NCBI GenBank assembly: GCA_964407865.1
Contig: CAYOXC010000003.1
Coordinates: 12,760-76,759 of the forward strand
Direction: 5' to 3'
Length of the DNA stretch: 64,000 bases
DNA from: an uncultured Gammaproteobacteria bacterium
Lineage (GTDB): Bacteria > Patescibacteriota > Patescibacteriia > Magasanikbacterales > GWA2-37-8
Shown here: piece after piece, positions 323 to 63,400 of the stretch
Position numbering within the stretch: position 1 is the stretch's first letter
Layout: each line of letters starts with the position of its first letter
Notes under the pieces: generated by a model
What the model saw: only the letters and a program-made list of their open reading frames with translations
Database searches by the model: none
Told to the model about the DNA's origin: nothing
Translations under genes and position numbers: made by a program

Positions 323-2971
323 TTAATTATTATCTTTTCTCATTAATAAACTCCATATTTCATCTTTGTTCAAATCGATCGGCCCGATAGCTATGCCATT
401 GCTGGCCAAAGTTGTATTATTCCCGTCAGTCCAGTTTGGATGCCATGGTGCTGGATAAATAATTTGGCTTTCAAAAGAAGATTTAACTCCGGACTGTTTT
501 TGCACAACCAGTTGATAGCGAGAAGTAAAATAATTTTCATTTATTATTTTTCGGAATAAGTTATTCTCAGGATTTTGGCTGGGTTCGTCTAATTTAAGCC
601 TAAAAGGAAGCTGGTAGGTAAACTGAACTTGTCGTGTTTCGCCGGGCTCTAAAATTAGCCAATTACCAAATGCAGTTTTGCCAAATTCTTCAGTTATTCT
701 AGTACCAGACTGAGCATCAATTCTTATTTCTTTTTCAATGGCTAGCAAAAATTCGTCTTTGACGCTACCAGTTAAAGGAGCGCGAAATTTTCGTTCATCC
801 GGCCAGGTAAAACCGCCAGCGTTAATTAATTCACTGCCTTTTGGCACGTAAACGCGAATATAATTTATATTTGTTGATCCGTAAAGTTTTTGTGAAGGGT
901 CGCCAGTATGTTCCCGCGTGATAACAACAGTATCAATTATTGAGCCGTCATCAGTGACAACAACCTCATGATTAATTGTTTGTTTTATTTGTGCATCTGA
1001 TTTTTGTCCTTGTATGTTTGTGTTTACTACCATTAGGTAATCCTGCTCTGGTTTAATAGGTAAAATCTGACCGCTCCAGCCAAAACTTTTTATTGTATCT
1101 TCTGTTTCTTTATCAGTAAAATAGGCCTGTACCTCTTTGCCTTCCAAAGCTTCAGCCAAATTAACCATAAGCGGCATGGTTTTACTTGGGCTAGCGCTAA
1201 AAATATAGCTGATAATTTGCGGCGCTAGATCAGTAATAATTTGTTTTGGCCTGTTGTCAGCTTTTTCCGGACCTTCTTCAACAATATGCTGTATTTGAGT
1301 TATGGCAGTAGAAGAGGTTAGAGTAATTGAACGGGTTTCATCTGTAATCGGACCGAGTATGGCAATCAGCCGTTCCAGAACAGTGGCGTTAATAGCCAGT
1401 ACTCCGTCAGCTGTAATTTGACGCGCATGGCGGTAGAACCAGAGCATTTTTTCCGCGCTAGTAGGAAAATCAGCAAACCAATTTGCATCTTGAAATTCCC
1501 AACGGCGGTTAGTTAAAAGAAGCGGTACGGGTGGTTCAACAGAAACATCCAACTGGCCTTGTAGGTCATAGGATCCTCCAGGTGGTATATTTAAACCGAC
1601 TATTTTTCCGTCTTTAATATCAATTAGGGCAAAGCTGCCCAAAAATCCTCCGCTTGGCCTGATTTCATGCGGGTTTTGAAAAACTACGAGATAGCGTCTG
1701 TAGCCATTGCCGCCAAAAATTTCATCCACCACCTTTCCCAAATCAATAATATTATTCAAATCATCAAGAACCGCGGCAAAGAGTATGCGAAAATCTTTGA
1801 ATGCAGCTTGGTATTCAAAAGGCAGCACTTTTTCATCTACTGAACTAAGATCTTCAAGAGCATCGTTGTAGTTGGGCGTTGCTGCTTCTAAAAATTGAGT
1901 TAATATTTTAATTCGTTGAGTTAAAGTTTCGTTATTGTTTGTCTGGCTTTCACTGATGCCTTGTATCAAATATTGATTACCCAGTGCAATTTTTTGACCG
2001 GCAGTAATTAATTTTTGCCGCGATTGTACTTCGTTGGAGAGAATTGGTACGGCTGAAACGATTTTTTGCAGAAGTCGATGGTTGTCCTGTATAGCCTGAA
2101 TGGCGTTTTCAAATTTTTTTAGAGCTTCTGCCACTGAATGTTCAGCACTCATGATATCTGCCGAAAGAATTGCAGCAGTGGATTCTTGTAGCGCCATAAA
2201 ACCTTGTGTACCCTCGGCGGCAATTTCGCTAGTCGTTATTTTGACTGATTGGTAGTAGGAGTGTGCTTGAAAGGGGATAATACAGATAAATAAAAATACG
2301 GCTGTTCGCCAAGATAATTTAAAAATTAAATTTTTTAGCGGTAAAGTCGGCTCTGTTTTTATTTTGTTGCTCGCTATATTTTCAGCACTATCATCAATAT
2401 CAAAAATTGTTAAATCAATAATTGGTTCCGGAGTTATTTTATCGACCGATTCGTTAATCGTTTTATTTTTAACTGTTATATTAGTTTTTTCTATACTTTC
2501 CTCACGGAGAATTTTTTCCGCGATCGGCGCTTTAGCTGTTTCGACCTGGTTTTTTTTCATAGCTCGTTCCATACGAGCCATTTCTTTTGCTGCTTTTCGG
2601 CCTTCCTGCCATGAGTCAATACGGGAGAAAATATAATTTCTTAAAAAATCTTTTTTTGGTTTTAAATTTACCTTTGTTGCTATTATTACTTCTTTTGTTA
2701 TTTTTTGTTTTGTTTCTAGTTCTTGTGCTTGGCTGTTTTCAGGAGAAAAAGTTGCAATTTCTGACCAAGGATTATTATTTTGTTTGAGGTCCACAACATA
2801 GGGTGAGCGTATCGCTTGTTTTTTTTCATATAGAACCATTTTAATCGCTGATTTTTTCGGCGCTTCTTCCGTTTTTTGAGTAGCTAAAAATATCGGGCAG
2901 CGTGCTTTGTTGTGGCCCGGTTTGTGGCAGATAGTGCAAGCTCTAAGTTGAGGGCGTCGTCTTTTTTTCAT
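323..2971 (-). CDS. Large membrane protein with a DUF4012-like central domain and an N-terminal CCHC zinc-knuckle-like motif
   Basis: 882-aa ORF. The N-terminus is ...CTICHKPGHNKARCP. One TM segment follows. The block YLVVFQNPHEIRPSGGFLGSFALIDIKDGKIVGLNIPPGGSYDLQ is typical of the DUF4012 family found next to cell-wall glycosylation genes. Confidence 0.55.
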   Translation of the reverse strand: MKKRRRPQLRACTICHKPGHNKARCPIFLATQKTEEAPKKSAIKMVLYEKKQAIRSPYVVDLKQNNNPWSEIATFSPENSQAQELETKQKITKEVIIATKVNLKPKKDFLRNYIFSRIDSWQEGRKAAKEMARMERAMKKNQVETAKAPIAEKILREESIEKTNITVKNKTINESVDKITPEPIIDLTIFDIDDSAENIASNKIKTEPTLPLKNLIFKLSWRTAVFLFICIIPFQAHSYYQSVKITTSEIAAEGTQGFMALQESTAAILSADIMSAEHSVAEALKKFENAIQAIQDNHRLLQKIVSAVPILSNEVQSRQKLITAGQKIALGNQYLIQGISESQTNNNETLTQRIKILTQFLEAATPNYNDALEDLSSVDEKVLPFEYQAAFKDFRILFAAVLDDLNNIIDLGKVVDEIFGGNGYRRYLVVFQNPHEIRPSGGFLGSFALIDIKDGKIVGLNIPPGGSYDLQGQLDVSVEPPVPLLLTNRRWEFQDANWFADFPTSAEKMLWFYRHARQITADGVLAINATVLERLIAILGPITDETRSITLTSSTAITQIQHIVEEGPEKADNRPKQIITDLAPQIISYIFSASPSKTMPLMVNLAEALEGKEVQAYFTDKETEDTIKSFGWSGQILPIKPEQDYLMVVNTNIQGQKSDAQIKQTINHEVVVTDDGSIIDTVVITREHTGDPSQKLYGSTNINYIRVYVPKGSELINAGGFTWPDERKFRAPLTGSVKDEFLLAIEKEIRIDAQSGTRITEEFGKTAFGNWLILEPGETRQVQFTYQLPFRLKLDEPSQNPENNLFRKIINENYFTSRYQLVVQKQSGVKSSFESQIIYPAPWHPNWTDGNNTTLASNGIAIGPIDLNKDEIWSLLMRKDNN

Positions 2972-10208: not shown

Positions 10209-10599
10209 GGTTCATTACAGGCAATCGCTGTGTATATTTATACATGGAGGAAAGTCCGAACACGCCCGCGCACATTTTACGCGGAGCAGGGTAGCGGGTA
10301 ACGCCCGTCGGGAGTGATCCCAGAGGTGCGAGCAGAGACGTCTGTGGTCGAAAGGCCAAAGAGAGCAAACCCCAAGTAGTTGATTAATCAATTATGAGCT
10401 TAGCTTCAATCAAGGGGATAAAAGATTGAAGGTGAAACGGCTAAATCCTTACCTGCGTGCAAGAGCAATGTTTCCGTTTTTAAATGGATTCAAAAAGTTA
10501 GCTCGCTTGATCGCTTAAAGTAATTTACGCGACAGATAAATGATTGCTCTCTGACCTTGCGTCGGAGTACAAAATTCGGCTTATTATAATGAACATTAA
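10209..10599 (+). ncRNA. rnpB: RNase P RNA (bacterial type A)
   Basis: Conserved blocks ggaggaaagtccg (10247), agggtagcgggtaacgcc, aaagagagcaaacc, aaggtgaaacgg and ttcggcttat near the 3' end. The P1 pairing is 10211..10219 with 10588..10596. An intrinsic terminator follows immediately. Confidence 0.8.
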
Positions 10600-22981: not shown

Positions 22982-23262
22982 AATTTTTCTATTGCTTTAT
23001 GTTAGCAGAAAATGATGTTTTTTGCTAATTAACGTGTAAAATGAAAAAACCTCGGATAAGGAGCTTGAAAAAGAGTGGAGTTATTATAGTCATTTGGAAA
23101 GAGGGGTTTATTTACGCAACCGACGTATCAAAAAATCGAAGGTTGTGAGTACGGATGAATGAGAACCTGCCTGTCGGTAGGCAGGCCATCAACTTACAGC
23201 TTACCCGAGCAGGAAGGCTTTTCAGAGAAAAAATGTCGCTCACAAAAAATAAGAATATTTCG

Positions 23263-23335
23263 TGCGCCTGGATGGATTTGAACCATCGACTTCCACCTTA
23301 TAAGGGTGGCACTCTAACCGCTGAGTTACAGGCGC
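23263..23335 (-). tRNA. tRNA-Ile with the unusual anticodon UAU
   Basis: Minus-strand read GCGCCTG TA ACTC AGCGGTTAGAGT G CCACC CTTATAA GGTGG AAGTC GATGG TTCAAAT CCATC CAGGCGC A gives a canonical cloverleaf. Anticodon positions 34-36 read TAT. Confidence 0.65.
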
Positions 23336-60335: not shown

Positions 60336-60989
<654 letters not shown>

Positions 60990-62632: not shown

Positions 62633-63064
62633 TTGACTTTAAGTGTTTTTTGTGCTAATATTATAGCACGTATTAGTAATTTGTATTTAGTAATTTATGT
62701 TTGGGGAGGGGAATGTATGTTTGATTTTGAAAATTTAGAAGTTTACAAGAAAGCATTTGATCTAAACCATGAGATATTAAATTTTTTAAGATCAAATAAG
62801 AATATTGATTATTTTTTAAATGATCAATTGAAAAGAGCATCAATAAGTATTGTGATTAATTTAGCCGAGGGTACAGGAAAATTTTCTAAGCCTGATAAAA
62901 GAAATTTTTATATAATTGCCAGAGGTTCTTTATATGAATGCGTTGCTTTATTAGAAATTATAAAGAAAGAGAATGCGATCAATCAAGAAAATCACGAATA
63001 TTTTTATAAAAAATTTGAAGTAATATCAAAAATGTTAAGTGGATTAATAAATAGTCAAAGGTAA
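62633..63064 (+). CDS. Four-helix-bundle protein (23S rRNA IVS protein family); likely true start ATG at 62717 after GGGAGGGG
   Basis: FENLEVYKKAFDLNHEILNFL...INLAEGTGKFSKPDKRNFYIIARGSLYECVALLEI is the canonical pattern of this family. Confidence 0.75.
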   Translation: MTLSVFCANIIARISNLYLVIYVWGGECMFDFENLEVYKKAFDLNHEILNFLRSNKNIDYFLNDQLKRASISIVINLAEGTGKFSKPDKRNFYIIARGSLYECVALLEIIKKENAINQENHEYFYKKFEVISKMLSGLINSQR

Positions 63065-63105: not shown

Positions 63106-63197
63106 GGAGAGGTGGCTGAGTTGGTCGAAAGCGGCACACTGCTAATGTGTTGTGCAGCCTTAAAACTGCACCGAGGGTTCGAATCCCTCCCTCTCCG
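63106..63197 (+). tRNA. tRNA-Ser (anticodon GCU), class II
   Basis: GGAGAGG TG GCT..AGC anticodon stem GCACA/TGTGT with loop CTGCTAA; long variable arm TGCAG..CTGCA; T-arm GAGGGTTCGAATCCCTC; acceptor 3' strand CCTCTCC-G. Confidence 0.85.
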
Positions 63198-63199
63198 CA

Positions 63200-63392
63200 C
63201 GGAAAAAACCTGTCCGTCAGGCAGGTTTTTGAGTACGGAGAGGAGCGACCAAATTGATTTGGTCGCGCGAGGGATGAGAACGCCGGAGCGATGTCGCGCC
63301 GACTTACTGGGAGGCGCGACCGCGAGGCGGTGGCTAGCCCGAGGAGGCGGAAGCCGACGAGAGGCGAAGCCGATCCCTCCCTCTCCGCACTC
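63200..63392 (+). other. GC-rich (~60%) 170-bp segment immediately 3' of tRNA-Ser, ending in a 17-nt direct repeat of the tRNA 3' end (att-like)
   Basis: aatccctccctctccgcac (63183..63201) recurs as gatccctccctctccgcac (63373..63391). The terminator-like hairpin aacctgtccgtcaggcaggttttt lies at 63207..63230. Confidence 0.5.
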
Positions 63393-63400
63393 TTTTTTTA

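Follow-up and report, generated by a model that had tools for sequence, protein, structure and literature searches.

We examined the tRNA-Ser(GCU) locus near the end of a 64,000-nucleotide stretch of contig CAYOXC010000003.1 (GenBank assembly GCA_964407865.1; hereafter the window), which comes from an uncultured bacterium of the Patescibacteriota lineage. An intact tRNA-Ser(GCU) gene occupies 63106–63198 of the plus strand (ARAGORN; Rfam RF00005, 61.9 bits). It does not encode CCA, and its 3′ end falls at 63198 or 63197 (ARAGORN, Rfam tRNA model). The DNA behind the gene is rich in G+C, with 63.4% over 63201–63372 compared with 39.9% for the whole window. An earlier reading of the letters alone (hereafter the original prediction) had reported both the gene and the GC-rich segment, which our analysis bears out, and had suggested that the segment is what was left after deletion or excision of an integrated element, or else a duplicated tRNA 3′ fragment. 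Instead, positions 63231–63392 (66.7% GC) make up a 162-nt element that is predicted to fold strongly and appears to be modelled on the top half of the neighbouring tRNA-Ser.

The original prediction also noted that the 3′ end of the tRNA recurs downstream. This repeat is real and is a true duplicate of the tRNA 3′ portion, but its length and spacing had to be corrected: the exact match (ATCCCTCCCTCTCCGCAC) is 18 nt, not 17 or 19, the base preceding it being A in one copy and G in the other, and the two copies (63183–63200 and 63373–63390) lie 190 nt apart from start to start, with 172 nt between them. Copy 1 runs from the T-loop onward and includes two trailer bases after tRNA-Ser. When the window was shuffled with its dinucleotides preserved, matches with up to three mismatches occurred 0.03 times on average, and two matches were seen in 0 of 100 shuffles. 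A trailing element was also looked for behind the other tRNA genes of the window, Leu(CAG) and Ile(UAU), and none was found.

The second repeat copy forms the 3′ strand of two helices, P1 and P0, and the reading of the repeat as the scar of a lost mobile element is therefore not upheld. The 5′ strand of P0 (GAGUACGGAGAGG, 63231–63243) pairs with 63380–63392 in 12 of 13 positions and contains, at 63237–63243, the exact acceptor 5′ strand of the tRNA, GGAGAGG. The 5′ strand of P1 (GAGGGAU, 63269–63275) mimics the 5′ strand of the T-stem and pairs with 63373–63379 over 7 bp. Between these two 5′ blocks, at the place of a D-arm, sits a hairpin (63245–63266) with a 9-bp stem (GCGACCAAA/UUUGGUCGC), perfect in the window copy, and the loop UUGA. 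The 3′ arm (63373–63392) consists of the P1 3′ strand AUCCCUC followed by the P0 3′ strand CCUCUCCGCACUC. The original prediction had itself raised the alternative that the match is part of a second tRNA-like unit, and this is what we found: the repeat pairs with acceptor-like and T-stem-like 5′ strands. All of these features lie on the plus strand.

In the window copy P1 is stacked directly on P0, the anticodon arm is absent, and a 97-nt domain takes the place of the T-loop. This conserved core (63276–63372) is a three-way junction according to a family covariance model (R1, see below), covariation and the minimum free energy (MFE) fold. On one side of it, P2 (63281–84/63326–29) is followed by a tandem G·A (63286–87/63324–25), P2b (63288–90/63321–23) and P3 (63293–63300/63313–20). 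On the other, P4 (63332–35/63368–71 plus 63337–40/63361, 63363–65) leads through a second tandem G·A (63341–42/63359–60) to P5 (63343–48/63353–58), which is closed by a GGAA loop. The MFE of the window element is −94.2 kcal/mol, compared with −62.3 ± 4.2 for shuffled sequences (z = −7.65), and no shuffle folded as well. Consistently, the single-sequence MFE fold of the window copy is the consensus structure of the family.

The element is flanked by two further structures. The spacer between tRNA and element folds into a hairpin at 63204–63230 of the plus strand (MFE fold; AAAAACCUG.CC GUCA GG CAGGUUUUU) with A-run and U-run flanks, which a terminator scan flagged on the minus strand. By its predicted fold this hairpin is terminator-like, is probably leaky and could act in both directions. 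Directly 3′ of the closing stem lies a run of seven T (63393–63399, plus strand), a probable end of the transcription unit as judged from the sequence. The original prediction had overlooked the seven-T run, the spacer hairpin with its U-run and the complementarity of the 5′ side to the repeat. In addition, tRNA positions 63190–63207 can pair with the 5′ arm of the element at 63226–63243 (83% over 18 nt). A read-through transcript accordingly has a second, swapped fold available, with the body of the tRNA paired to the distal 3′ arm, and this may be a mere by-product of the shared sequence. Neither ARAGORN nor RF00005 called a tRNA on the element, both reporting only 63106–63198. For transfer-messenger RNA (tmRNA), ARAGORN found none in the window, Rfam gave no match at E values up to 10, and no tag reading frame was present.

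Relatives of the element were found in two scans. The first, of species-representative genomes with a pattern taken from the acceptor strand and the 3′ end, returned chance matches together with clear relatives behind tRNA-Ser in Saccharibacteria, other Patescibacteria and one Elusimicrobiales genome. The second, of metagenome contigs with an exact pattern confined to the insert (CGGAGCGATG...CGCGAGSCGGTG), returned at least 120 loci, about 100 of them genuine among the matches listed and the rest chance matches in high-GC coding DNA. In the metagenome loci listed, the family core lies 45–110 nt 3′ of tRNA genes of 19 specificities (Ser, Leu, Gly, Asp, Met, Arg, Gln, Lys, Val, Pro, Tyr, Ile, Trp, Glu, Thr, Ala, Cys, His and Phe), and the phenomenon is thus neither Ser-specific nor locus-specific. 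All copies are on the same strand as the upstream tRNA, and at most loci at least 12 nt of the 3′ end of that very tRNA is repeated at a fixed distance after the core. Across the about 100 independent loci listed, the intervening DNA is constant in size, architecture and sequence. The hallmarks of the family are helices P1–P5, the invariant junction strands GGAGCGAUG / CGCGAG.CGGUG and a 3′ flank that corresponds to the upstream tRNA from T-loop to 3′ end. By sequence, the family appears widespread in Patescibacteria and so far uncurated.

We built the covariance model R1 (108 model positions) from the alignment of the family core. It gave a single match in the window, at 63270–63382 (95.5 bits, E = 3e-22), which covers all 108 model positions. 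R1 copies were also found at other loci (designated by L numbers), namely L124, L053, L020, L029, L071, L072 and L022, and further loci hold several copies each. At L225, a single strand carries tRNAs and elements in alternation, with about 50 nt from one to the next.

Covariation supports the structure of the family as a whole. RNAalifold, applied to 79 sequences, recovered the D-like hairpin, P1, P2/P2b/P3 and P4/P5, with 32 of 40 pairs changed on both sides. Compensatory changes affect all eight stem pairs of the D-like hairpin (alignment columns 33–40/72–79) and five of the six pairs of P1. A hand-written core structure was then evaluated on 74 sequences and 33 pairs, with controls in which the 3′ partners were slid by 1–3 columns. 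Paired cells amounted to 88.9% compared with 32–45% in the slid controls, the covariation score was 0.425 compared with 0.06–0.12, and none of 500 shuffles reached any of five covariation measures. About 26 unpaired core nucleotides are near-invariant, about half of them imposed by the search pattern; GAAC before P2, the A bulges and CGAG/CGAGAG are conserved independently of it. The core contains three tandem G·A/A·G motifs in the family, which suggests a protein- or metal-binding fold. The loop of the D-like hairpin and its linker are family-wide and not derived from the local D-arm.

These data bear directly on whether the locus is a scar, as the original prediction proposed. In that account, a larger island or prophage once sat at tRNA-Ser and was deleted or imperfectly excised, leaving a direct repeat of the tRNA 3′ end. 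Gene content 3′ of tRNA-Ser does vary among relatives, as at an integration hot spot, and real att-type duplicates do occur elsewhere, at tRNA-Ile (L014, L096). A scar, however, would not recur with constant size, architecture and sequence behind different tRNAs at about 100 independent loci, show RNA-type covariation, or pair its 5′ half with the repeat; moreover, no integrase is present in the last kilobase of the window or recurs in the family. What lies between the repeats is a complete structure, conserved and covarying, whose size is constant, and we consider a scar highly improbable. The window segment is very probably a member of a conserved structured family rather than a degenerate remnant. 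A repeat of a tRNA 3′ end, routinely taken as the footprint of an island, here marks a structured element under covariation, and island-finding and tRNA-annotation pipelines will misread such loci.

A decaying tandem duplicate of tRNA-Ser would also account for part of the picture, given that the acceptor 5′ strand, the T-stem 5′ strand and the 3′ end are all tRNA-Ser-like and that an 11-nt stretch of the D region is 10/11 identical to tRNA-Ser. Neutral decay, on the other hand, would not keep perfect stems, nor one non-tRNA core behind 19 kinds of tRNA. The family-wide origin of the D-like loop and linker and the lack of any call by ARAGORN or the Rfam tRNA model likewise contradict a pseudogene, to which we give next to no credence.

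We next consider how the arms relate to the local tRNA. In 51 of 82 cases the identity to the tRNA begins sharply at C56 of the T-loop. Its right edge usually falls 0–6 nt beyond the end of the tRNA. In about 20 cases the identity extends for 10–75 nt and covers trailer sequence, a terminator or the beginning of a tandem copy. The P1 5′ arm complements the 3′ arm, including 2–4 T-loop bases, and is not a copy of the 5′ half of the T-loop. At least 7 contiguous base pairs of P0 can be formed in 19 of 79 members, compared with 9% in controls that combined 5′ and 3′ segments of different members, and the window copy is among the best examples.

Orthologues of the neighbouring 523-aa membrane protein place the source of the window as a relative of Candidatus Magasanikbacteria and led to three syntenic loci, a comparison of relatives that the original prediction had suggested. 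It revealed both filled and empty sites and no larger element between the repeats. L124 carries the element behind tRNA-Ser(GCU), together with a tandem or partial tandem copy bounded by the repeat, whereas L126 and L128 have the same tRNA-Ser and no element, the site holding an ordinary hairpin or nothing. The T stem (GUGGG/CCCAC) and acceptor (GGAAGGG) of the L124 tRNA-Ser are both unlike those of the window, and its element is altered to fit its own tRNA in both P1 strands, the whole 3′ arm and five of seven P0 positions. Between the window and L124 the elements are 77% identical and the tRNAs 76%, a parity in keeping with long co-residence of tRNA and element, the arms following changes in the tRNA. 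Similarly, the copies within L225 differ by compensatory changes and look mosaic. Judged from the aligned sequences, such divergence among paralogues is the behaviour of functional RNAs rather than of burst-amplified repeats, and it suggests long-term constraint, not a recent burst.

Together, these observations lead us to the explanation that we favour over the others, in which the element is a tRNA-linked structured RNA co-transcribed with tRNA-Ser, a proposal whose truth and falsity we regard as evenly balanced on the sequence evidence. Its component claims differ in strength: that the element works as an RNA made together with tRNA-Ser is fairly likely, while processing of it like a tRNA by end-processing enzymes, proposed by analogy, is possible but doubtful. 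A separate promoter would not fit into the 37-nt spacer, and the element would therefore be transcribed by read-through from tRNA-Ser. We infer co-transcription from this lack of promoter room, from the alternation of tRNAs and elements at L225, and from the 52 of 85 members that lack an intervening terminator-like hairpin. Transcription would pass the weak spacer hairpin and end at the seven T. The acceptor/T-stem helix and 3′ end shared with the tRNA would then expose the transcript to tRNA end-processing enzymes, and the product would accumulate as a stable RNA of about 150–160 nt. The conserved GA-rich core would bind a partner, and either selection for mimicry or recombination with the neighbouring gene would preserve the match between arms and tRNA. 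Candidate roles include a decoy for tRNA 3′-end factors, a companion in processing or quality control, and a chargeable minihelix.

The sense of the strand is in line with such an RNA. For the window copy, folding of the plus strand is favoured over that of the minus strand by 7.7 kcal/mol, and G–U pairs outnumber A–C mismatches by 49:13 in the D-like hairpin and by about 32:12 in the core. These strand data favour a function of the tRNA strand, be it as an RNA or as single-stranded DNA, and are no proof of transcription.

Several observations weigh against a co-transcribed, tRNA-like RNA. Only about one member in four has a clear P0, which, where present, also pairs the discriminator and the bases that follow; a helix predicted to pair the discriminator would not be an ideal substrate for RNase P or RNase Z. 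Once P1 is included, the G–U to A–C ratio falls to 58:41, a weak excess that leaves a role as single-stranded DNA possible. About 39% of members, the window included (33 of 85), have a terminator-like hairpin between tRNA and element, which would limit read-through. Identity that reaches 2–6 nt beyond the mature 3′ end, together with the sharp edge in the T-loop, looks more like the footprint of DNA recombination than like the outcome of selection acting on a mature RNA. Finally, the element at L149 is a hybrid, its 5′ arms being of the Ser type and its 3′ arm of the Asp type, and an Asp/Ser hybrid tRNA fragment precedes it.

The element could alternatively be a cis-acting 3′ module of the tRNA-Ser unit, for instance a terminator, an exonuclease block or a processing landmark, with no role as a free RNA and with arms that are a by-product of its origin. 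Its location directly behind tRNAs, the closing stem followed by seven U in the window, and the ordinary hairpin or nothing at the empty sites L126 and L128 would all suit such a role. So would the terminator-like hairpin that lies within 110 nt downstream of the element in 40 of 97 members, compared with a 13% background. Compared with an intrinsic terminator, the window copy indeed presents P0 and then seven U, but the stem encloses a branched structure of 136 nt, and most members have no U-run there, being followed by a separate terminator or another tRNA. About 26 near-invariant unpaired nucleotides, three tandem G·A motifs and five covarying helices would be superfluous for a terminator or block, and many tRNAs in the same genomes do without an element. 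We therefore regard a cis module as rather improbable.

The main rival, which we consider unlikely yet weigh in earnest, is an integrative element of miniature size and without genes. In this account a circle of about 190 bp with a tRNA-like attP would cross over in the T-loop and replace the 3′ end of the cognate tRNA; the repeats would be true attL and attR, the structure would be cargo RNA or a folded recombination substrate, and a host recombinase would act in trans. The edges of tRNA identity, at C56 and just past the tRNA end, agree with this proposal, as do the alternation of presence and absence at the syntenic locus, the occurrence behind every kind of tRNA, the Ser/Asp hybrid junction at L149, and the tandem copies, some of them partial, that have the repeat as their boundary at L124, L179, L225, L023 and L035. 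The T-loop is one known crossover sublocation of tRNA-targeting integrases (review PMC9897764). To this extent, the att-like reading of the original prediction has substance, in that the left edge lies in the T-loop and presence varies.

Other observations speak against an integrative element. Clustering of neighbouring proteins and reading of 30 downstream open reading frames (ORFs) disclosed no recurrent protein partner or integrase near about 85 copies; the recombinases seen near family loci were one Xer-like protein and, at distances that varied, a serine recombinase in 4 loci. In the window, no ORF fits between the repeats and the last kilobase contains no integrase (the window ends 600 bp past the element); the neighbours are 23S_rRNA_IVP, DUF134 and DUF5320. 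Tyrosine integrases normally require an inverted half-site next to the crossover, and the attP-side sequence has no inverted T-stem half-site there. No kilobase-scale or autonomous relative was present in the loci examined. A search of phage records with the element gave no match, and a scan of viral contigs with the core pattern gave one, a chance match in GC-rich DNA without the flanking motifs. Paralogues within a genome have diverged with compensatory changes instead of being near-identical, and the parallel divergence of element and tRNA between the window and L124 fits vertical descent. Precise loss and tandem gain can be achieved by ordinary recombination between the repeats alone. Taking both possibilities jointly, that Patescibacteria and some Elusimicrobia carry either undescribed companion RNAs behind many tRNAs or the smallest known integrative elements, with a tRNA-like RNA gene as attachment site, falls a little short of an even bet. 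Companion RNAs would add a new layer to the tRNA biology of reduced genomes, and the family would then be a large unexplored one tied to that biology in minimal-genome organisms; mobile DNA would mean an integrative unit of unusually small size that carries no genes. Relatives may be present in cultivated Saccharibacteria.

The hybrid element at L149 is part of a nested mosaic (800–1330, minus strand). The mosaic starts with a tRNA-Asp 5′ half, a 38-nt block and a complete tRNA-Asp; it continues with the 38-nt block inverted, a tRNA-Asp piece from anticodon to T-arm that ends in a Ser-type acceptor strand, and the family element. By its sequence, the arrangement appears to record recombination between tRNA-like units, in the T-arm as well as the anticodon loop. 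A different pattern is seen at L014 (6–80) and L096 (4209–4283), where tRNA-Ile with anticodon UAU is followed about 60 nt downstream by a repeat of its sequence from the anticodon loop to the 3′ end; this duplicate adjoins an apparent gene end on the opposite strand, a classical att-type arrangement in contrast to the window element. Separately, the four contigs retrieved from the window organism (L120–L123, 1–2.6 kb) all end at this locus, at 63197, 63118, 63308 and 63388. Poor coverage of the GC-rich DNA may lie behind these breaks, or else the element may vary in copy number or presence; we make no claim of a mixture of filled and empty sites, since the breaks match the edges of the repeat only imperfectly.

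We then compared the element with known systems. In Rfam 15, searched at permissive thresholds, only tRNA reached the gathering threshold in the window region, and the same was true of 14 other family loci. The sole weak non-tRNA match was sX4 (RF02223; 33.3 bits compared with a gathering score of 70), and nearly all of it came from the tRNA part. sX4 is a Xanthomonas small RNA that covers tRNA-Ser and its trailer; its consensus likewise pairs the C-rich tRNA 3′ part with a downstream G-rich stretch, but the model lacks the core of the present family. In the literature searched we found no description of the element; coverage was incomplete, and an earlier description is possible. The nearest reports deal with Patescibacteria tRNAs that carry group I introns (PMC13011429), tmRNA genes with an intron in the T-loop (PMC11915505), fragments of tRNA genes left by integration (PMC9897764) and TIGR-Tas (PMC12045711).

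The element resembles attL/attR fragments in having a direct tRNA 3′ repeat after an intact tRNA, a start in the T-loop, variable presence and tandem accumulation. It differs from them by a 172-bp insert without integrase or genes, by the conserved covarying structure of that insert, whose 5′ half pairs with the repeat, and by the position of the T-stem 5′ mimic about 95 nt from the repeat, so that no normal core site exists. Williams (2002) is said to have set out sublocation classes of integration within tRNA genes. With the tRNA-like domain of tmRNA, YrlA (a Y RNA) and viral 3′ tRNA-like structures, the element shares an acceptor-like helix on a T-stem-like helix, the absence of an anticodon arm and a grafted domain. 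Those RNAs, however, keep an intact T-loop and one fixed identity, whereas the element replaces the T-loop and mimics the upstream tRNA; its acceptor is of the tRNA-Ser type, while tmRNA is tRNA-Ala-like.

MALAT1-mascRNA, plant tRNA-snoRNA (small nucleolar RNA) genes and the Escherichia coli 3′ETS-leuZ (external transcribed spacer) likewise place a non-tRNA RNA beside a tRNA or tRNA-like unit within one transcript, from which tRNA-processing enzymes free it, and they provide the working model here. The plant genes are dicistronic (cited in PMC12045711). All three are single loci or eukaryotic, none being a multi-copy bacterial family with tRNA-copying stems, and processing of the element is a proposal. 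Repetitive extragenic palindromic sequences and bacterial interspersed mosaic elements (REP/BIME), miniature inverted-repeat transposable elements (MITEs) and Rickettsia palindromic elements are, like the present family, short, GC-rich, hairpin-forming, multi-copy, gene-less and located behind genes, and P0 resembles the terminal inverted repeat of a transposon. In contrast to MITE and REP elements, the termini here vary and equal the local tRNA end, a constant target-site duplication is absent, and the fold is a multi-helix junction. A group I intron in a T-loop, as in tmRNA genes (PMC11915505), would be expected to measure about 200 nt or more, to contain P1–P9 and to split a gene that is complete in other respects, whereas the core of the element measures about 95 nt and its host unit has no anticodon arm.

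Several identities were tried and rejected. A group I intron was dismissed on the absence of an Rfam intron match and the core of about 95 nt, and a MITE or REP on termini that differ between copies and on the compensatory differences among the L225 copies. By eye, we also compared and rejected tmRNA, YrlA, group I intron, hammerhead, hairpin ribozyme, K-turn/box C/D, integron attC and 5S rRNA; 5S rRNA and hammerhead have a similar three-way-junction topology, but their junction strands misfit and the Rfam models gave no match. Kissing of the D-like loop (often CUGC) with the P3 loop (often GCAG) was inconsistent among members, the window having UUGA.

Beyond the family proper, other tRNA-derived arrangements were encountered. 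Divergent subfamilies at L075 (Saccharibacteria), L023, L035, L002, L069 and L105 share the architecture, namely an acceptor 5′ mimic, a hairpin, GGGAUUCGAA, an insert and the tRNA 3′ end, and have different cores, one with the motif CGCGCACAGAAGCUUGCUUCGAGCA. R1 did not detect these subfamilies at E values up to 0.1. The divergent core of L075 occurs behind two different tRNA-Ser genes and one tRNA-Arg. In Patescibacteria and Bacteroidota, tandem arrays of up to three or more units, 62–78 nt each, follow tRNA-Ser (L009, L112, L083, L115, L010, L080, L030 and L078). In each unit, one or two GC-rich hairpins interrupt a T-arm within its T-loop, and the acceptor 3′ strand and a repeated trailer come next; such arrays appear from their sequence to be a simpler relative of the window element without the conserved core.

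Inserts within tRNA-Ser itself were seen at L089 (73–234, plus strand), L103 and L110, where the gene is complete to the T-loop GGTTCGA and continues with a structured insert of 70–90 nt, then (C)AATCCCTC and the acceptor 3′ strand, without any duplication. The L110 insert contains a terminator-like hairpin, and the L089 copy is not called by the Rfam tRNA model. The mirror case lies 5′ of tRNA-Ser at L005, L007, L017, L034, L094, L097, L118 and other loci: the first ~14 nt of the tRNA (acceptor 5′ strand and start of the D-arm), interrupted by a hairpin at the D-loop, is duplicated 40–80 nt before the gene. This 5′ duplicate was present at 33 of the 147 tRNA-Ser genes in the fetched loci, a frequency biased by a search pattern that selected upstream GGAGAGG.

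As for the neighbourhood, a PF05635 gene for a four-helix bundle of the 23S-rRNA-intervening-sequence type lies at 62717–63064 (plus strand), between the membrane-protein gene and tRNA-Ser. The same slot holds a small GIY-YIG nuclease gene in L126 (393–641) and L128 (5629–5934), both relatives without the element. Genes of the PF05635 and GIY-YIG types are often linked to selfish insertions. A second GC-rich island (~62% GC) at 60336–60989 (plus strand) is not an RNA but a 217-aa ORF with a signal-like N-terminus, long Asp-Thr/Asp-Ser repeats and a Cys-rich tail. The window also contains, at 23262–23335 (minus strand), a tRNA-Ile with anticodon UAU, which is unusual in bacteria, and, at 10209–10599 (plus strand), an RNase P RNA of a divergent type A (107.7 compared with the Rfam threshold of 100).

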